From contig OY740783.1 of NCBI GenBank assembly GCA_963514005.1, positions 128,960,001-129,024,000 on the forward strand: a stretch of DNA of 64,000 nucleotides. Direction: 5' to 3'. The notes below the pieces were generated by a model. That model worked only from the letters and a program-made list of their open reading frames with translations. It was not told the DNA's origin and ran no database searches. This document shows, piece by piece, positions 2,329 to 62,738 of this stretch (position 1 is its first letter; every line of letters begins with the position of its first letter). This DNA is from Raja brachyura. Its lineage: Eukaryota. The translations under genes were made by a program, and so were the position numbers.

Positions 2329-2736
2329 ATCCCGACGGGGATGTCTCAGTGGTGACTGGGACGGAGGGGGCTTCGGCCACGTTACCATGTGTGTATCGGC
2401 AATCCCAGCGTTACCGCACCGCCCTCACGGTCACATGGATGAGGAAGGATCCCTACCGACACATCGTCACGTTCAGACCACGAGCCGATGGATCCTGGGC
2501 GGCGGAGAACAGAGCAACTCGGTTCGAGCTGGTCGGCAACCCAGAGCGGGGAAACGCCTCAATCAGGATAAACCAGCTGAGGGTGGAGGACAGTCACGAC
2601 TACCTGTGTCTGGTGGAGTTCAGCAAAGAGGAAAACTACGATCCGAGAAAGGACATCGACGAAAAGTTGAGGAGCAGCGTACACCCCCCGTACACCCACC
2701 AGTACCAGCGTGAGCTCCAGCTGCGGGTCACACCCG
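2329..2736 (+). CDS. Receptor gene A, Ig V-set exon (Siglec-15-like, homologous to V2 of gene B); upstream exons not found in the window
   Basis: Acceptor tccttccctcag| and donor G|gtaaga; 408 nt, phase 1-1, open frame. Ig motifs LPC..VTW..RFELVGNPERGNASIRI..EDSHDYLCLVEF..LQLRV. Confidence 0.88.
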
Positions 2737-4043: not shown

Positions 4044-4143
4044 TCACGCAGAGTTACATGGTTCTGATCATGTGGATCCCTCTAGGATTGAAAACCGTTT
4101 TCCTTTCAGTGATGTGTGTTGTCTTCTACCGTGACAAACTCAG
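4044..4143 (+). CDS. Receptor gene A, transmembrane exon with an intramembrane lysine
   Basis: Acceptor ctctcctcag| and donor AG|gtatgt; 100 nt, phase 1-2, in frame with the V exon. Encodes VTQSYMVLIMWIPLGLKTVFLSVMCVVFYRDKL. A paralogous exon of identical length lies at 18112-18211. Confidence 0.85.
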
Positions 4144-4993: not shown

Positions 4994-5027
4994 CAAGCGG
5001 GGAAACGGATCCATCCGAGGAAGCTGA
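4994..5027 (+). CDS. Receptor gene A, last coding exon (short tail SKRGNGSIRGS-stop)
   Basis: Acceptor ggtcttgttgtgtcctcag|, phase compatible. The intron end and exon are homologous to 16496-16555 (-). AATAAA follows at 5173. Confidence 0.7.
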
Positions 5028-16495: not shown

Positions 16496-16511
16496 TCATT
16501 CCCGACTCATT
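16496..16511 (-). CDS. Receptor gene B, last coding exon (tail RMSRE-stop)
   Basis: Acceptor ggtcttgttctgtccacag|, homologous to the last exon of gene A and phase compatible with the TM exon. Confidence 0.6.
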
Positions 16512-18111: not shown

Positions 18112-18211
18112 CTGGTTTTGTCCCTGATTAAAATGAAGCCCATCACCAAAAGGACAAGGCTTTTCACTCCAAGTGGAATACACAGTATCAGAGGGTAGGA
18201 AAACTGTGGGG
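18112..18211 (-). CDS. Receptor gene B, transmembrane exon with an intramembrane lysine
   Basis: Acceptor ctctctcttcag| and donor AG|gtatgt; 100 nt. Encodes APQFSYPLILCIPLGVKSLVLLVMGFILIRDKT. Confidence 0.85.
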
Positions 18212-23395: not shown

Positions 23396-23743
23396 CTGTT
23401 GCAACTTGCAGTTGGATCTCGCACTGGAACAGATGACAGGTCGAGGTCACGATCTGCACCACACACAGGTAGCCGTCACTGTCCTCCACACTCAGCTGCT
23501 TTATCCTGGTTGAGGCGTTTCCCCGCTTTGGGTCCCCGACCAGTTCGATCCGAGTTGCACCGTTCTCCGCCGCCCAGGATCCATCAGCTTGGGGTGTGAA
23601 CGTGACGATGTGTCGGTAGAGATCCTTCCTCATCCATGTGACCGTGCGAGGCATGTGGCTCGGCAGAGGAGTTGAGAACACACAAGGTAACGTAGTCGAA
23701 GCCCCCTCGGTCCCAGTCACCACTGAGACATTCCCTCTGGGAG
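23396..23743 (-). CDS. Receptor gene B, second Ig V-set exon (V2)
   Basis: Acceptor tccttccttcag| and donor G|gtaaga; 348 nt, phase 1-1, open. Motifs LPC..VTW..EDSDGYLCVVQI..QLQV. Confidence 0.88.
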
Positions 23744-30607: not shown

Positions 30608-30988
30608 CTCTCACAGTCAGGCGAATGACCTTTGGTAATAGAGGAGGTCCACCGACGTCTTTCACATTGCAGATAAATGGACCATTATCCTTCTGTCCCA
30701 GTCGCTCCACCACTATCGAGGCATCCCCCCGACTGAGGTTCCCGATGAACCTAAACCGACCTCCTCCTGCCTCATGCCCCACTCCATCACACAAGGAGTG
30801 GAAGGCAGCAGTGAACCGACACGTAATAATGGCATTGTAACCCTGCAGGTCACCTTTGAACCAGCTCAGCTCGGGTTTGATGGTGCGATCAGTGGCCAGG
30901 GGGGTGAACGTGCATGGCAACACGGCCGATCCTCCTTCCATGGCAGACACTTCATCGGCAGGTGGAAAATGCCAAGTGTGGGTGGCTG
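30608..30988 (-). CDS. Receptor gene B, first Ig V-set exon (V1), strongly Siglec-15-like
   Basis: Acceptor ccctttctattccag| and donor G|gtgagg; 381 nt, phase 1-1. Motifs EVSAMEGGSAVLPCTFT..SWFKG..TCRFTAAFHSLC..RFRFIGNLSRGDASIVVERL..FICNV..IRLTV, including the extra Cys pair typical of the Siglec-15 V domain. Confidence 0.88.
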
Positions 30989-35319: not shown

Positions 35320-38155
35320 AGGTCATAAGGAATAGGAGCAGAATTAGGCCATTCAGCCCATCAAATCGATTCCACCATTCAATCATACCTGATCTATCTC
35401 TCCCTTCTAACCCCATTCTCCTGCCTTCTCCCCATAACCTCTGATGCCCGTTATGTTGGAATTATTTCATAGTCATACTGTGTGGAAACAGGCACTTCGG
35501 CCCAACTTTCACAAGATGACCAAGATGCCTCCTCTACACTAGTGCTACCTGCCCGTCTTTGGCCCATATTCCTTTAAATCTTTCATATCCGTGTACCTGT
35601 CCAAATGTCTTCTAGATTTAGGGTTACACAAAAAGCTGGAGAAACTCAGTGGGTGCAGCAGCATCTAAGGAGTGAAGGAGATAGGCGACGTTTCGGGTCG
35701 AGACCCTTCTTCAGACTGTCTTCTAGATTTAGTTCAGTTTAGAGACACAGCATGGAAACAGGCCCTTTGGCCCACTGAGTCCCCGCCAGCCAGCGATCAC
35801 CAGTTCTATGTGATCCCATTTTTGCATCCTACGCATTAGGGGCAATTTACAGAAGCCAATTAACCTACAAACTTGCACGTCTTTGGAGTGTGGGAGGAAA
35901 CCAGAGCACACAAGGAAAATCTGGCATTGTTTCTGCCACCACCGTGCCGGCCTTATGTGAAATGTTGAGAAGTTGTGTATATCAGGAAGTGCAGAAGAGA
36001 AAATGATCACAGTGCAGAATATGGCACTACACCTACAGAGAAAGTGCAGGTAAGAAAGTGTGTATTTGTGTGTATGTAAATGTGTAAAATGTGTGTCTGG
36101 TGCTGCATTTGTGCCTGCATATGTGTCTGTGCGAGTGCATGTGTGTGTGAGTATGTGCGTGCCTATCTCCATGCATGTGTGATGTGTATGGGTGTGTGCA
36201 TGTGGGTTGTATATCTATATGTGTATGATTCTGTAGGGTGCGTGCATGCACGTATGCGTCAATGTCCCTTGGTTTGCGTGTGTCATTGGATCATTGTGTA
36301 TGTTTTTGTATAAATGTGTGAGTGCGTGTATGTGTGTCCATTTGTATGATCTTGTGCGTGCGTATGACTTTATGTATGTGAGTGTGTGTCACTTGCTGGT
36401 GTATGTTTGTGTGTCTGTCTATATTTCTGTATGTGTGCACATCTCATTTGTGTGCGTGTGTATATGCGGCAGTGTCACTGTGTATGCGTCTACTTTGTGC
36501 GTATGTCAGTGACTGTGTGTGTCTCTAATTTCTGTGTGCATATATCTGTGACTGTATGTGTGCATTTGCATCCCTATATTGTGCCGGCATGGGTGTGTGT
36601 GTGGTGTGTGTGTGTGGGTCTGTGTGTGTGTGTGGGTCTGTGTATATGTGTGCGTATATGTGGGTGTGTGCATGTGTGTGTGTGTGTGTGGGTGCACGTG
36701 TTTGTACATGTGCGTTGGCACATGCGAGTGTGTGCATGTGTATGTGTGCATGTTGTGTGTATATCAGATATTCAGATATTCAAACTTTATTGTCATTGTG
36801 CAGTGTACAAGTACAGAGACAATGAAATGCAGTTGGCATCTCACCCAGAAGTGCGAACACAGAATAATGGAACAGTAATATATATATATATGTATATACA
36901 GCAGCAGTAGTGCAATCATGCCATACGCATGCACCAAAGACAAAAAAATCCATATTGGCTACGGTGGAGATGCTGCCTTACAGTGCCAGAGGCCCGGATT
37001 TGATAGCAGTATGCGTGTATGTGTGTGTGCATGTTGTATGTATGTGTGTGTGTGTGTCTAGTGGAGGTTTACGAGAATGATCGCAGGAATGAGTGGGTTA
37101 ACATATGATGAGCGTTTGACGGCACTGGGCCTGTACTGGCTGGAGTGTAGAAGGATGAGAGGGGACTTCATAGAAACTTACTGAATAGTGAAAGGCCTGG
37201 ATAGAGAGCATGTGGAGAGGATGTTTCCCCTAGTGGAAGAGTCAAGAACAAGAGGCCACAGCATCAGCATAAAAGGAGATGAGGAGGAATTTCTTTAGTC
37301 AGAGGGTGGAATTCATATAGAAACATAGAAACATAGAAAATAGATGCAGGAGGAGGACATTCGGCACTTCGAGCCAGCAACGCCTTTCATTGTGATGATG
37401 GCTGATCGTCCCCTATCAATAACCCGTGCCTGCCTTCTCCCCATATCCATTGACTCCACTAGCCCCAAGAGCTCTATCTATAGAAACATAGCAAATAGGT
37501 GCAGGAGGAGGCCAAGGGTGCGGGTCGAAGGGTGTGGAGGCCCTCAATGGATATTTTTGAGGCAGAGATTTGCCAGATTCTTGATTAGTACGGGTGTCAG
37601 GGGTTGCGGGGAGAAAGCAGGGGAATGGGGTTGAGAGGGTAAGGTGGAACAGCCATGTTTGAGTGATAGAGTAGACTTGGTGGGCCGAATGGCCTAATTC
37701 AGCTCATATCACTTATGAACTTATGACACGTCTAAAGGTCATGAGTCCAGCATGAGTCCAGCATGAGTCCAGATTCCAGTTCTTATTTCCAGCTTACATT
37801 ATCTCCAGCTCCCTCATCCTGCTTCTCTTGACCGGTGTCTGTTCTTCCCTCAGCTCCCAGCGGGCATGCCTCAGTGGCGACTGGGACTGAAGGGGCTTCG
37901 GCCATGTTACCGTGTGTGTTCCCAACGCCTCAGCCCGATACCGTCCCACTCACGGTCACGTGGATGAGGAAGGATCCCTACCGACACATCGTCACGTTCA
38001 GACCCCAAGCTGACGGATCCAGGGCGGCGGAGAACGGAGCAACTCGGTTCGAGCTGGTCGGCGACCCAGAGCATGGAAACACCTCAACCAGGATAAAGCA
38101 GCTGAGTGTGGGGGACAGTCACGGCTACCTGTGACTGGTGGAGATCGTGATCTCA
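35320..38155 (+). repeat. Inverted segmental duplication of the gene B V1-V2 intron and V2 exon (about 23440-29430)
   Basis: Collinear reverse-complement matches: 35320-36760 to 28480-29430; 37058-37270 to 24130-24267, 24919-24995 and 27972-27985; 37580-38155 to 23440-24030. Confidence 0.85.
37854..38155 (+). pseudogene. Pseudo-exon copy of receptor V2
   Basis: Acceptor intact, but the second Ig Cys codon is TGA (38132-38134) and the G strand and donor are missing. Confidence 0.85.
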
Positions 38156-40091: not shown

Positions 40092-40152
40092 TGTTTCCAT
40101 GTACTGAGACCAACAGCAGAACTGTCGGCAGCCAAGTGGAGAGGAGCCTCAT
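40092..40152 (-). CDS. Receptor gene B, leader (signal peptide) exon MRLLSTWLPTVLLLVSVHGN
   Basis: ATG, hydrophobic core and a VHG cleavage-like site; 61 nt with a phase-1 donor A|gtaggt that joins V1 in frame. Non-repetitive sequence, too short for the ORF track. Confidence 0.75.
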
Positions 40153-42935: not shown

Positions 42936-43080
42936 GGATCCTGGGCGGTGGAGAACAGAGCAACTTAGTTGGAACTGGTCGGGGACCCAGAGCGCGGAAA
43001 CGCCTCAACCAGGATAAAACAGCTGAGCGTGGATGACAGTCACGGCTACCTGTGTTTGGTAGAGATCGTGACCTCATCCC
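42936..43080 (+). pseudogene. Remnant (3' half) of a receptor V2 exon
   Basis: Encodes GSWAVENRAT-stop-LELVGDPERGNASTRIKQLSVDDSHGYLCLVEIVTS; the downstream flank matches 38155-38490. Confidence 0.85.
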
Positions 43081-43826: not shown

Positions 43827-44810
43827 TTATTTGACAGTACTCAAAATCCTCCCTGCATAAGTGTCAGGGGTGGCCACGGGTTTGTTGTAGAAGCGGTGAA
43901 AAGTCCTTTCATTACTCCAACCCGCTGTGGCCAGGATGTGGTCCAATGGTACTTCCATCCTCCTAGCCGCCGAAGTGGATGCCGCCCTGGTGGAGTGAGA
44001 TTTGAATATATTAGTGTCCACCCCCGCCGCATCCAAAACCACCCTTAACCATCTAGAAATGGTTTGCACCGTGACTTTATGATGGGGCTTCTTGTGGCTT
44101 ATAAGCAAAGCTGTCTCCGTGCCCCTGAGATTTTTGGTAACTGTGATATATTGTGAAATTAACGTGACGATGCAGAGTCGAGTATCTGCTGGATATGCCA
44201 GAAATTCCAAGGTATGACCAGACGCTCCGTGTCGATCTTGTTTCAACAGTCCCTGCACATGAAAAGTGACTTTATCATTGGTGATAGTCATGGCATCCAG
44301 ATTAAGTTTGTGTAGAGACTGGACCCGTTGTGCCGTGATAAGTGCCATAATCATTACCATTTTGTATGTGAGCTTTGCCAAAGTGAGTCCCGTGTTAGGT
44401 GTCCATCCTCGCAGCATAGTTAGGACTGTGCTGATATCCCACGTATGGTTATATCTGGGCCTAGGGGGATTGGAATTGAATATTCCTCTCATTAGTTTGG
44501 ACACTAATGGATGTGATCCAATTCCCAATTGGTCACTCCCCTGGCCCAAGTAGGATGATAGTGCACTCCTGGCACTGTTTATGGCACTGTAGCTCAGTCC
44601 CTCATCAAAGTGTAGGGTAGCCAAGAATTCCAGCACTTCTGTAATGGTAGCGGATTCATATGTAGTGTTGGTAGTAGCGCAGAATCCTTCCCATTTCTTG
44701 ATGTAGGTGAGGTACTGCTTCCTGGTGGACTCCCTGCATGCCGCCGAGATGGTGTCTATCATTCTGCTGGTGAGTCCGAATCCGCGAAGAGGCCGTTTTA
44801 GAATCTGCAA
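43827..44810 (-). CDS. DIRS tyrosine recombinase, intact ORF (start codon uncertain)
   Basis: SAM-like N-terminal domain; catalytic residues R (TAQRVQ), HSTR, AGW and Y (FHRFY). Confidence 0.92.
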   Translation of the reverse strand: MQILKRPLRGFGLTSRMIDTISAACRESTRKQYLTYIKKWEGFCATTNTTYESATITEVLEFLATLHFDEGLSYSAINSARSALSSYLGQGSDQLGIGSHPLVSKLMRGIFNSNPPRPRYNHTWDISTVLTMLRGWTPNTGLTLAKLTYKMVMIMALITAQRVQSLHKLNLDAMTITNDKVTFHVQGLLKQDRHGASGHTLEFLAYPADTRLCIVTLISQYITVTKNLRGTETALLISHKKPHHKVTVQTISRWLRVVLDAAGVDTNIFKSHSTRAASTSAARRMEVPLDHILATAGWSNERTFHRFYNKPVATPDTYAGRILSTVK

Positions 44811-46810
44811 ATTAACAGGTCCATGCGGTCATAACATGGGTGATGTTCTCCTGTGACAGGATGAACGAGCAGGCTAGGTCGTTTATTGACCCGAATGCAA
44901 AGTTCTGTGGCCATCTTCTGTACCGCTGGGAACCATGGTTGGGTAGGCCAGTCGGGCACCACCAAAATACCCGATGCGGAATCTTGTTTTATTTTCTGCA
45001 AGACCCGACTGATGAGGCAGAAAGGGGGGAATGCATAGCAGAACAAATCCCCCCAATGTAGCGTGAAAGCGTCCATCGCTACTGCCCCAGGGTCCGGTTC
45101 CCAAGCAACATATGTTGGTAGTTGGTGATTTAATCTGGACGCGAAGAGGTCGATATCTGGTGTCCCATAACGTTCTACAATATCTGTGAACACTTTTCGA
45201 TCCAACATCCATTCTATGTTGTCGTTAAGTTTGCGTGACCTGGTGTCTGCCACTGTGTTTAGCTTGCCTGGGAGGTAAGTGGCTGAGATCCAAATTTCCC
45301 TTTGCAGACACCAGAGCCAGATATTGTTGGCCAATTCATCGCACGATATCGACTTTATTCCGCCCATATGGTTAATATAGGCCACCACCGTGGTGTTGTC
45401 AATTTGTATCCTTACATGAACTTTGTGCATGTTTGTGCAGTATGCCCTGAGGCCGTGAAATGCTGCCAGCATTTCTGAATAGTTAATTCCCAAATTTTTG
45501 AATAGGGTTAACTCTTGTGCACTCCATCTACCTCCACAACTAGAGGTAGTATTAGTAGCTCCCCAACCTTTGGCACTGGCATCCGTTTGTAAGGTGATCG
45601 AGGGATTGATGATAGTGATGGGTTTGGAACAATATTGGGCATTAGGCATCCACCAATTTAATTCGGCTTTTGCCTTTTCTGGTATTTTCATAGGCCTATC
45701 GAAATGGCCTGCATGACTTTTGAGAGCTATAATTTTGGCTCTTTGTAAGTTTTGATAATGTAAAGGCCCATATTGTGCTGCGGGAAAGGCAGCCACTATC
45801 TTCCCAATCACCCTGGCCACCTGCCGAATGGATGGGTCCTTGATGCCAATAAGGCTCCTGCAAGCCTCTATCAAGTCCTCCACCTTACTTAGTGGCAACG
45901 TGATAGACATTTGCACTGAGTCGATATTGAACCCCAAGTATTTCATGGTGGTAGAGGGTTTTAATATTGATTTATCTGGATGTATAATGAAACCCAGCTT
46001 CTGAAAGAGATGTTTCGTGGCTGTAACTGCCAATGTAGCCATTTCCAAACTTTCCCCAACAATGAGGATATCATCAAGATAGGCCATAACAATATGATTC
46101 TGTTTCCTTAAGTAGGCCAAGGCTGGTTTTAATATCTTGGTAAACAATCTGGGTGCTGATGATAACCCATTAGGCAAGGCTTTGTATTGCCATAATTGTC
46201 CCATCCAGATAAATTTTAAATATTTCCTATGATCCTTGTGTATTGGTACAGAATAGTATGCATCTTTGAGGTCAATGCATGCCATGTAGTACCCATAATC
46301 TATTAACTGTATAGCAGTGTCAAAGGTGTCCATTTTAAAATGAACATACTGAACAGAAGTATTCAGTTCGGTCAAATCTATGATAATGCGGCAACCGCCG
46401 TCTTTTTTGTTTTTGGTGAATATATTAGACACGAACTCCTGTGGTTCTTTGGTAGCCTTCTCAATTACCCCTTTTTCAATTAATCTGTATAGTTCAGCAT
46501 GCCCTGCTACCCTCTCTTTTTGAGAGAGTATGAATTTTCGGCTGGGTAAATGCTGGACCGGGGTAGGGAGTTCGTGAATAAATTCAATTTTGTAGCCCTG
46601 AATACTCCTGAGTATGAAAGGATCAGAGGTAAAAGTGCGCCAATTTTCATAAAACATGTGCAACCGGCCCCCTACATAAAGTGAATTTAGGCAAGATGTG
46701 TTTCTGGGGAAACCAGACCCACCTACCTCCATGGTTATTGCCGGTGTTGCGGTTTCTGTCCTTGTTTCCTTTGTTGATTCATCGTGTTGTAGGAGTGGCG
46801 CATCTTCCAA
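44798..46810 (-). CDS. DIRS reverse transcriptase / RNase H / adenine-methyltransferase-like ORF, intact
   Basis: IDLKDAYY, LPNGLSSAP, YLDD; RNase H TDAS..GWG and DNTT; C-terminal DLFAS..YAFPPF. Confidence 0.95.
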   Translation of the reverse strand: MEDAPLLQHDESTKETRTETATPAITMEVGGSGFPRNTSCLNSLYVGGRLHMFYENWRTFTSDPFILRSIQGYKIEFIHELPTPVQHLPSRKFILSQKERVAGHAELYRLIEKGVIEKATKEPQEFVSNIFTKNKKDGGCRIIIDLTELNTSVQYVHFKMDTFDTAIQLIDYGYYMACIDLKDAYYSVPIHKDHRKYLKFIWMGQLWQYKALPNGLSSAPRLFTKILKPALAYLRKQNHIVMAYLDDILIVGESLEMATLAVTATKHLFQKLGFIIHPDKSILKPSTTMKYLGFNIDSVQMSITLPLSKVEDLIEACRSLIGIKDPSIRQVARVIGKIVAAFPAAQYGPLHYQNLQRAKIIALKSHAGHFDRPMKIPEKAKAELNWWMPNAQYCSKPITIINPSITLQTDASAKGWGATNTTSSCGGRWSAQELTLFKNLGINYSEMLAAFHGLRAYCTNMHKVHVRIQIDNTTVVAYINHMGGIKSISCDELANNIWLWCLQREIWISATYLPGKLNTVADTRSRKLNDNIEWMLDRKVFTDIVERYGTPDIDLFASRLNHQLPTYVAWEPDPGAVAMDAFTLHWGDLFCYAFPPFCLISRVLQKIKQDSASGILVVPDWPTQPWFPAVQKMATELCIRVNKRPSLLVHPVTGEHHPCYDRMDLLICRF

Positions 46811-46832
46811 GAAGGCCGGGCTGGGCCATGGC

Positions 46833-47597
46833 CTAAAAGAGACCGCTGTGCAGGTTGGCCGGCCTTCTAGCTTTCACCACAGGCAGGTCTCTGATGGTAT
46901 CTCTGTCCGGTGGGTGTGTAGGGGTGCTGTCTTTGTGGGTAATGAGGTTTGGTAGGCCCGGGAACCTTGACAGGCCCAAGGCCTTGGCCTCCTCATCAAG
47001 ATCTTTTACTTGCTTGGGAAGGTTATCCCCGAACAGCAAGCTTGGAGGCTGTGTCTTCCCAGGCTTACACAACCCCGCAAACTTGGGGTTAAGCGCCGGC
47101 TTTATGATGCTCTTTCTGAAATTGTTTATCTCATACTGTGTATTACACAGTAGAGCCAGGGCATCTTGCAGTTCTTCCGGCAACTCTATCCCCACTGCAG
47201 TTCTGGCCACTGCTGTGATCCCGGCGGTTAAGAGCTTTAGGATTTTTTGAAGTTTGATTTCCTGCCCTCTGCTCGAGGGGCTCATATTCCCCCAAATAGG
47301 GTTGTTCACCGCAGGGACATTAAGTGAGTTACAGTTTTCAGGAGCCATATATTTATCAGCTGTAGAATTTATGGCCTGTTCCTGTAGCTGGTTGGTCGCC
47401 ATGTAGTTAATGCTGGCTGCCAGCTTAGGGTGGATAGGTAGGCCTTTCTGTGTCGGCATTGCATGTTTATTTACCATATCCAGATATTCTTCACACACCC
47501 CTGACACAGATGGTTGTTCAGCCAGCTCCCCTTCTTCTGGGGCAGCCCAGTTCTGACCCTCAATGCTCCCCTGCGAGGAGGGTGAGACATTTGGCAG
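46833..47597 (-). CDS. DIRS gag-like ORF, C-terminal part (split by the LINE insertion)
   Basis: PENC..L.VPAVN..IW and LLFGDNL motifs; fuses in frame with 50745-51086. Confidence 0.8.
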   Translation of the reverse strand: MPNVSPSSQGSIEGQNWAAPEEGELAEQPSVSGVCEEYLDMVNKHAMPTQKGLPIHPKLAASINYMATNQLQEQAINSTADKYMAPENCNSLNVPAVNNPIWGNMSPSSRGQEIKLQKILKLLTAGITAVARTAVGIELPEELQDALALLCNTQYEINNFRKSIIKPALNPKFAGLCKPGKTQPPSLLFGDNLPKQVKDLDEEAKALGLSRFPGLPNLITHKDSTPTHPPDRDTIRDLPVVKARRPANLHSGLF

Positions 47598-47604
47598 TCC
47601 TTGG

Positions 47605-60004: not shown

Positions 60005-61015
60005 TGGAGGGGCGATGGGGAAAGGTGGGGAGATGATGAGTAAAGAGGGTTGAGATGGTGAGAGGGCAAGGGGGGAGCGGGATATGGGAAAGTGGGGAGA
60101 GATGGGAAAGAGTGGAGGAGATGGGAGAGTGGGGAGATAGGGGAGAGGGGAAAGTGTGGAGGAGAGAGGGGAGAGGGGGGAGATAGGGGAGAGGGGAAAA
60201 ATGGAGAGAGAGGGGGGAGGGGAGAGGGNNNNNNNNNNNNNNNNNNNNNNNNNNNNNNNNNNNNNNNNNNNNNNNNNNNNNNNNNNNNNNNNNNNNNNNN
60301 NNNNNNNNNNNNNNNNNNNNNNNNNNNNNNNNNNNNNNNNNNNNNNNNNNNNNNNNNNNNGAGAATGGTGAGGGAGAGGGGTCAGAGGGGAGAGGGGCAG
60401 AGGGGAGAGGGAGAGAGGGGAGCGGGTATGGGAGAGAGTGGTGAGGGAGAGGGGTCAGAGGGGAGAGGGGGAGAGGAGAGAGGGGAGAGGGGAGAAGGGA
60501 GAAGGGAGAGGGGCGAGAGGGGCGAGAGGGGAGAGAGGGGAGAGAGGGGAGAGAGGGATATAGTGGCGAGGGAGAGGGAGGAGAGAGGAGAGGGGAGAGA
60601 GAGGATGGGAGGGGGGAGAGAGGGGAGCGGGGAGAGGGGAGAGGGGAAAGAGTGGAGAGAGAGGAGAGAGGAGAAAGGGGAGAGAGAGGATGGGAGGGGT
60701 AGGGGGAGAGAGTGATGAGGGAGAGAGAGAAAAAAGGGAGAGAGAGGGAGAAAGAGAGTGGCGGTGAAAGATTGATAGGGACGGGCGACAGAGAAGAGTG
60801 AGAGAGAGGAGGGAAGAAGGGGTTAGAGGGGGGCGAGGGAAGAGTGGGAGGGGGAGGGAGGGAGGGGAGAGAAAGAAGAGAGCGGGGAGGGAAGAGTGAG
60901 GAGGGGAAAGGGTGAGGGGTGGGAGAGGGGAGAGGGGAGAGTGAGAGGGAGGGGGGCAGGGAAGAAGGAGAGGGTGTGAGGGTGCGGGGGGGGGGGGGGG
61001 TAGAAGGGAGAGAGG
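60005..61015. repeat. Polypurine (G/A) low-complexity tract, including the assembly gap at 60229-60360
   Basis: Almost exclusively G and A on the + strand. Confidence 0.9.
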
Positions 61016-61019
61016 GTGA

Positions 61020-61400
61020 CCCTCATGTCCCGGGGCTCTGGGACACTGGGAGCGGCGGCTTTGCGGGGCTCGGCAGTGGCCCGCAGGCGGCGCCCGGTGT
61101 CTGCGGCAGGCGGGCGGGCAGGACAGGGCAGGGCAGGGCAGCGCCGCCCCGCTCCAGCCTCCCCGCCCTCCCGGCGCTCCCACATAAGGAGCCGGAGCCG
61201 GAGCCGGAGCCAGCGCTGTGCGCAGGGAGGCAGCTCCGACAGTCCCAGCGTCGGGATCGCAGGCGCAGCCGGAGCCGGAGACCGCAGCACGGGAGGCCTA
61301 GCCGGAGCGGGAGCAGCTGAACCGGGATCCAAGGTGGAGGAGCACTTCCACCGGGATCAGACCCGGAGCGGGCGGAGCAAACCGGGAGGGAGCAGGCTGG
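61020..61400 (+). promoter_or_regulatory. CpG island, probable TESK1 promoter or non-coding first exon
   Basis: Very GC- and CpG-rich, with GC boxes and (ggagcc)n, 1.1-1.5 kb upstream of the TESK1 ATG. Confidence 0.6.
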
Positions 61401-61830
61401 GAATCGGGAGCAACCAAACTGAGATCAGATCGTGGTGGAGTGGACCGGGATCAATCCAGGATCAGGTCAGGAGCAGACAGCCCGGGATCAACCCAGGAGC
61501 AGACAGACTGGGATCTAACCAGGATCAGATAGACTGGGATCAGATCTGGAGTCGGCTGCAGATTGACAGGGATCAATCCAGGATTGGAAAGACTGGGATC
61601 TGACAGGGAATCAGCGGATATCCTGGGATTGGACCAGGACTCAGGATCAGGTAGACTGGGATCGGACTAAGAAACAGGATCAGGTAGACTGGGATCAGAG
61701 CAGGAGCAGATAGACCAGGGTCAGACCAGGAGCATATAGACCAGGGTCAGGCCAGGATCAGAGACAGACTGGGATCAGGCCTAGATCAGTCCAGATTAGA
61801 TAGACTGGAATCAGACCAGGAATCTGGAAC
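61400..61830. repeat. Degenerate minisatellite (ggatcag / agactggg units)
   Basis: Recurrent agactgggatcag motifs. Confidence 0.7.
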
Positions 61831-62519: not shown

Positions 62520-62738
62520 ATGGCGAGGGAAACAAACCTGAGGTTGGACTTGCCCAGCGAGGTCCTGGTGCCGGACTGCGGGCCCTACTCGGCCCCCGCG
62601 TCGGGCGCGATGCTCGGCTGCAACTGTCTGCGACCCTCCTCATACCGGGCGCTGTGCAGCGCCGTGTCCACCCTGGCCAGGATCGACGACTTCTACTGCG
62701 AGAAGATCGGCTCAGGATTCTTCTCGGAGGTGTTCAAG
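62520..62738 (+). CDS. TESK1: Dual-specificity testis-specific protein kinase, first coding exon (TESK1 favoured over TESK2); gene continues beyond the window
   Basis: Encodes MARET...[36 protein letters not shown] then |gtaagg; 219 nt, phase 0. SAVS.LAR is TESK1-type as recalled, whereas TESK2 has SAFSRLTR. Confidence 0.85.

Follow-up and report, generated by a model that had tools for sequence, protein, structure and literature searches.

The window, meaning the whole 64,000-nucleotide stretch of Raja brachyura DNA analysed here, contains a five-exon gene on the reverse strand (gene B), the last three exons of a gene of the same plan on the opposite strand (gene A) and two pseudo-exons. The leader and the first V exon of gene A lie upstream of the window and are given in C3 coordinates. 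The Arg site denotes the position equivalent to R143 of Siglec-15.

40092..40152, reverse strand: gene B exon 1 (61 nt, GT donor, phase 1), which contains the start codon and encodes the signal peptide
30608..30988, reverse strand: gene B exon 2, V1, the first V-set domain, Siglec-15-like (381 nt, AG/GT, phase 1-1)
30666..30668, reverse strand: Asn codon AAT of gene B V1 at the Siglec-15 R143 position, placed by alignment
23396..23743, reverse strand: gene B exon 3, V2, the second V-set domain (348 nt, AG/GT, Pfam V-set E 1.2e-13)
18112..18211, reverse strand: gene B exon 4, Siglec-15-like transmembrane segment that contains a buried Lys (PLGVK)
16496..16511, reverse strand: gene B exon 5 (AG acceptor), which encodes a very short cytoplasmic tail up to the stop
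C3:128956737: gene A leader, upstream of the window
C3:128957350-128957721 (L007): gene A V1, Arg-bearing (YRCRLE, codon CGC), ~2.5 kb outside the window
2329..2736, forward strand: gene A exon for V2, with Leu at the Arg site
4044..4143, forward strand: gene A exon for the transmembrane segment, which contains a Lys (PLGLK)
4994..5027, forward strand: gene A short tail exon to the stop
37854..38155, forward strand: orphan V2-type pseudo-exon in gene B intron 1, on the strand opposite to gene B, with a stop at the F-strand Cys
42936..43079, forward strand: partial pseudo-exon of V2 type, interrupted by an in-frame stop

The five exons of gene B encode a leader, two V domains, a transmembrane segment with Lys and a tail; they are intact and their phases are compatible. 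The leader shares 18 of 21 residues with that of a skate orthologue, P0023, which matches gene B in overall plan, leader, Asn, transmembrane Lys and short tail. The V1 domain is recognized by Pfam as V-set (E 1.9e-8), and among PDB sequences it matches Siglec-15 best (7zoz, E 2.9e-9). V2 carries Val at the position where the family has Leu. The tail has no tyrosine motif and is homologous to the tail exons of gene A and of the gene B paralogue, B' (C3:133.48 Mb). A contig from run X3, the kind of which is not on record and which derives from the same sample as X1, consists of exactly 30608-30988 plus 91 more letters on the 5' side, and contigs of X1, X4 and X5 continue into the intron upstream of that exon; this pattern would be compatible with a spliced transcript. 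Both B and B' are also present in a second organism. Gene B is predicted to be an activating receptor of an elasmobranch paired-receptor family related to Siglec-15, and its transmembrane Lys would couple it to a DAP12-type adaptor.

Gene A has the exon plan of gene B. A leader candidate at C3:128953172 was rejected once homologues revealed the true leader type. The pseudo-exon at 37854..38155 is 87% identical at the nucleotide level to gene B V2 and 86% identical to gene A V2. A block of ~50 kb that comprises A, B and a pseudo-exon (window ~1900-53000) is duplicated at C3:133.44-133.49 Mb with ~85% identity. The copy of B appears intact, and the copy of A (A') has Gly at the Arg site and a frameshift in the transmembrane exon. 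The dN/dS of B versus its paralogue is 0.87 in V1, a value with which both drift and mixed selection are compatible, and between paralogues dN/dS is mostly 0.5-1.0.

The window also contains long open reading frames at 43830-47645 (reverse strand) and 47438-50575 (forward strand), which resemble, respectively, a retroelement of the tyrosine-recombinase kind and the endonuclease/reverse transcriptase of a LINE. An ATG-started exon at 62610-62738 (forward strand), with a kinase glycine-rich loop at its end and a GT donor, lies behind a GC-rich 5' region at ~61000-61420. It looks like the exon in which the coding sequence of a TESK-type kinase begins; an ESM Atlas search gave weak kinase leads (0.78-0.80) and the PDB gave no useful match. 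The exon is a possible synteny anchor.

Sugar binding by Siglecs is confined to the N-terminal domain. The first-pass annotation, made from the window, had claimed that the essential Arg is missing from every V domain in the cluster. The residues that it read are correct (Asn in gene B V1, Val in gene B V2, Leu in gene A V2 and in both pseudo-exons), and alignment with Siglec-15 places the Asn of FICNVK opposite the R143 of YFCRVE. The generalization to the cluster does not hold. Four of the five V domains in that list are second-type domains. Among 95 homologous second domains from sharks and rays none has Arg at the site (L 87, Q 7, V 1), so that a non-Arg residue there is no loss. Upstream inspection of gene A, whose first domain had been allowed to retain the Arg beyond the window, found exactly that, and 8 of the 13 first domains that were read across the genome carry Arg. 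The claim of a cluster-wide loss arose because the window ends where it does and because second domains were counted; gene B V1 is the sole real Arg loss within the window.

The genome searches returned 24 matches with V1 and 26 with V2, from which the 13 first domains were read; two partial copies on C987 were outside the count, and C987 and C1459 are small contigs that could be haplotype copies. Arg is kept in gene A, at C1459:45.5 kb, C987:235 kb and C3:128.906, 128.933, 129.84, 129.92 and 133.39 Mb, the copies at 128.906 and 128.933 Mb being broken. It is absent from B and B' (both Asn), from A' at 133.44 Mb and the copy at C3:133.453 Mb (both Gly) and from C1459:3.8 kb (Gln). Two of these five Arg-less genes are broken, A' by its transmembrane frameshift and the 133.453 Mb copy by a frameshift in V1. 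Within C3:128.90-129.00 Mb, three of four first domains keep Arg, two of the three in broken genes. The activating-type genes are A, B, B', two on C1459 and one on C987. Those of inhibitory type lie at C3:129.84, 129.92 and 133.39 Mb, with CTYASI/STYASI tail exons seen in the last two. All three inhibitory genes have Arg, and all five losses fall in activating-type genes. Similar ectodomains thus occur in one genome with either a charged transmembrane segment or ITIM-like tail motifs, as in a paired family. The wider statement that these receptors had lost canonical sialic acid recognition fails for gene A and for the three inhibitory paralogues, which carry the Arg.

Further receptor genes were seen elsewhere in the genome. 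Related multi-V plus C2 genes lie at C3:120.31-120.36 Mb and 128.40-128.41 Mb (L072-L076). Those at 120.3 Mb have Arg in both first domains and uncharged transmembrane segments, and the gene at 128.41 Mb, with Leu at the site and a transmembrane Lys, is a further Arg-less activating-type gene outside the counts above. Dozens more V exons with weak Siglec-15 matches on C50 and C51 (~2.3-5.8 Mb) are probably another large receptor cluster. A V-C2-TM gene at C3:120.40 Mb (L069), with YFCRVE, is the best genome match to bird Siglec-15; its candidacy as the SIGLEC15 orthologue is weakened by the lack of a transmembrane Lys and of the C'-C'' Cys pair.

Two profile searches recovered 91 and 105 proteins. 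The second homologue search used B-clade queries (see below) and is consequently enriched in Arg-less activating genes. A single-domain search with V1 for longer proteins gave none at E<=0.001 among 79 candidates; the alignment query did find homologues. The closest homologues of the window receptors are from the skates Leucoraja, Amblyraja and Rhinoraja, and the only non-chondrichthyan matches of the family profile are Siglec-15 or unnamed proteins. Chondrichthyan members have a V-V organization (some V or V-V-V-V) and occur in two forms, an activating one with a PL-x-x-K membrane segment and a short tail, and an inhibitory one with an uncharged membrane segment and a tail with motifs of the CTYASI/VIYAAV type. 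Three salamander V-V(-C2) receptors (P0132, P0134 and P0135) with ITIM-like tails resemble the family; P0134 has Gly in its first V domain and Arg in its second.

The census comprised 100 proteins from 20 species, reduced to 88 distinct first-domain segments; four proteins in which the first F strand was incomplete were left out, as was every non-chondrichthyan match. Classes were set manually, and for four activating entries the basis was the tail or an isoform, no transmembrane Lys being visible. A residue other than Arg is found in 21 of 42 activating segments, 2 of 12 unclassed segments (P0127 and P0130) and 0 of 33 inhibitory segments, where P0108, with an inhibitory-type transmembrane segment and Cys at the site in its only complete V1, was counted as Arg via a truncated upstream V1. 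Arg is also present in one segment that the two classes have in common. P0108 goes against the pattern, and so does P0092, with His at the site in an internal V1. A naive Fisher test of activating versus inhibitory segments, which treats kin as independent, gives p 2.7e-7. Half of the activating members retain Arg, so its loss is not required of them. When the B clade is removed, none of the 70 columns is as skewed by class as the Arg site (14/32 activating versus 0/35 inhibitory), which is followed by a column with 10/32 versus 2/35 (p 0.01), and the other columns conserved in inhibitory genes show no relaxation in activating genes.

A tree was built from 92 rows (77 protein V1, 10 genome V1 and 5 outgroup sequences) and 127 columns after truncated V1 domains had been dropped; its outgroup is Siglec-15, and hence it is no test of Siglec-15 orthology. 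Gene B groups with eight other V1 domains, those of B', Leucoraja, Pristis, Narcine, Hemitrygon, Hypanus and two Mobula, at a support of 99/93, the group lying on one side of a branch in 99% of bootstrap trees; long branches meet inside this B clade, as a warning on the tree records. The clade spans skates, sawfish, electric ray, stingrays and devil rays, and contains no shark sequence in the 92-row tree. None of its nine members has Arg; the site is occupied by N, H, S or Y, and Asn is also found in P0115, P0141 and B'. The members share a W-x-K/R-x-D-L motif, and across these batoid groups they are open-framed with their structural residues intact.

The tree requires 11 changes at the Arg site; read by eye, nine are on activating branches, two on unclassed branches and none on inhibitory branches, which amounts to about nine separate losses in activating members. 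An ad hoc branch-length test gives p 0.001-0.005. Twelve independent pairs gave on average 4.6 in the same direction, 0 in the opposite direction and 7.4 ties, and the corresponding sign test falls short of significance (median p 0.0625, range 0.03-0.25). Within a species, the tree does not sort V1 domains into an activating and an inhibitory group, and P0094 and P0129 have one F-G segment that is identical across the two classes. Both observations suggest gene conversion.

Binding by Siglec-15 is abolished by R143A and also uses W44 and Y154 (PMC10264397). In gene B V1 the A-strand Trp is present and the G-strand aromatic is replaced by Pro. With the family G-strand Phe taken as the equivalent of Y154 and the pocket judged by alignment, this Phe is kept in 1 of 9 B-clade domains; outside the clade, 18 of 32 activating domains have it, and of the inhibitory domains 29 of 35. 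The Arg is invariant in all 35 inhibitory V1 domains, where it is accompanied by the A-strand Trp and mostly by the G-strand aromatic. No compensating basic residue is conserved in the pocket across the B clade by alignment: of the candidates K109 and R57 neither is kept, and Lys109, on the F strand two residues past the Asn, is Asn in other skate orthologues. The basic residue at Trp+2 is conserved in the clade and is also common in Arg-bearing members; from V-domain anatomy we take it to be structural. For gene B, then, the earlier suggestion that canonical recognition was lost is well founded, as both the Arg and the G-strand aromatic are gone and the loss is common to batoids.

The AlphaFold model of gene B V1 (pLDDT 76.6, pTM 0.72, 71-row alignment) is a V-set sandwich with N107 in the middle of the F strand. 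C56 and C66 align with the C'-C'' pair of Siglec-15 (C95-C104), and the B-F pair C25 and C106 is also present. Fold searches with the model returned generic V-set proteins (CAR, P0, sodium-channel beta, nectin), with Siglec-15 at ranks 22 and 24 (Z 15.0, rmsd 2.4, 114 aligned), within 1 Z of the best and compared with Z 15.3-16.0 for P0 or CAR. These searches indicated no ligand identity, and the ESM Atlas search returned generic V-set clusters only. Gene B lacks the F-strand Arg, the G-strand member of the aromatic pair of the A and G strands and the C2-set domain of functional Siglecs; its second domain is V-set and is followed by the transmembrane exon, as in P0023. Gene A has the F-strand Arg. 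Features of the Siglec-15 lineage that gene B retains are the Cys positions for both disulfides and the transmembrane Lys (PLGVK). On its residues, gene B would be a Siglec-15-derived receptor that falls outside the functional Siglecs.

The reading that we favour, with some reservation, is that gene B is an activating receptor that lacks the sialic-acid Arg and likely has a new, non-sialic-acid ligand, and that its inhibitory kin read self sialic acid. Inhibitory members, which keep the Arg, would damp cells on self sialic acid via their tyrosine motifs. In activating members the membrane Lys may recruit a DAP12-type adaptor for signalling; the corresponding Lys of Siglec-15 is required for DAP10/12 coupling (PMC7226832). 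Such signalling would make the binding of self costly, and activating members may have been freed or pushed to drop the Arg repeatedly. In the gene B lineage the Arg would have been lost early in ray evolution and the F-G face rebuilt, so that gene B probably does not bind the animal's own sialylated glycans. Its ligand would most plausibly be microbial; activating paired Siglecs are described as counter-traps against pathogens, some binding bacterial proteins without sialic acid (PMC6288428).

Part of this pattern could arise without any new ligand. The Arg codon is CGC, and hence a CpG hot spot, in all six Arg-bearing genome V1 copies checked, and the replacements H, C and Y are those that CpG transitions would be expected to yield. 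Together with the two broken genes among the five Arg-less ones and the dN/dS between paralogues, this may be read as relaxed constraint in short-lived activating copies of a birth-and-death family, in which loss of the Arg is tolerated. We consider this unlikely as the main cause, because the B clade is open-framed across four batoid groups with its structural residues kept, because the other conserved columns of activating genes are not relaxed, and because two broken copies in the genome still carry the Arg.

A non-canonical site by which gene B would continue to bind acidic glycans, sialylated ones included, is in turn improbable. Siglec-6 provides a precedent, as it binds glycolipids outside the canonical pocket (PMC10122656), and gene B keeps the A-strand Trp and has Lys109 close to the Asn. 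However, Lys109 is not constant within the clade, 8 of 9 B-clade domains have no G-strand aromatic and the Trp+2 residue is shared with Arg-bearing members. We give just as little credence to the proposal that the whole V-V family never bound sialic acid, the inhibitory Arg serving a protein ligand or folding. The V1 fold is indeed no nearer to Siglec-15 than to P0 or CAR, and zebrafish Siglec-15 was reported to bind glycans poorly despite conservation (PMC7226832). Against this stand the Siglec-15 trio of residues in inhibitory V1 domains and the restriction of non-chondrichthyan profile matches to Siglec-15 or unnamed proteins.

A bolder version, which we put forward tentatively and hold to be possible rather than probable, is that Siglec-15 gave rise to an elasmobranch paired system in which selection removed the Arg at least nine times from activating members and never from inhibitory ones, the gene B lineage having been a sialic-acid-independent pathogen sensor of all rays since their common ancestor. 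Siglec-15 is usually described as a single conserved gene; if the proposal is true, cartilaginous fish built a CD33-like paired system out of it. Paired-receptor theory holds that activating partners should avoid self ligands, and Siglecs offer a one-residue readout. Primates supply a handful of cases. The present family supplies about eleven natural replacements in 20 species, with signalling class attached, so that the prediction of self-avoidance becomes countable and testable.

Arg-less Siglecs and paired Siglecs are already known, in primates. Siglec-XII is an inhibitory receptor. It has lost the Arg, and in great apes the inhibitory Siglec-5, like Siglec-14, is Arg-mutated (PMC6288428). 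For this elasmobranch family no paper was found in the literature covered, which includes few subscription journals, so that the absence is weak; the whale shark genome paper mentions Siglecs once, in passing (PMC8455134). The family resembles Siglec-15 (CD33L3; 7zoz) in V1 identity (32-36%), the C'-C'' Cys pair, the A-strand Trp, an F-strand Arg in most members and a transmembrane Lys in a PLG-x-K or LG-x-K context. Unlike Siglec-15, it is multigene with inhibitory and activating forms, its second domain is V-set rather than C2, and gene B has neither the Arg nor the G-strand aromatic.

The family also recalls the modular domain immune-type receptors (MDIR) of the clearnose skate, which likewise form a multigene set of activating and inhibitory IgSF receptors in a skate (PMC3031540). 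MDIR are described as CD300/TREM/pIgR-like (PMC3031540), whereas the top matches of gene B V1 are Siglec-15 and CD33; the two are set apart by description only, and pIgR is among the weak matches of gene B V2. A parallel in organization is with the primate paired Siglecs 5/14 and 11/16, which have similar ectodomains, opposite signalling and repeated loss of the Arg (PMC6288428). The mixing of activating and inhibitory V1 domains within species is what gene conversion would give, as in those pairs. The primate paired Siglecs are CD33-related, whereas the elasmobranch family is Siglec-15-related; and the primate Arg losses are lineage-specific and in some cases inhibitory, whereas those found here fall on activating genes, one of them spanning the batoids.
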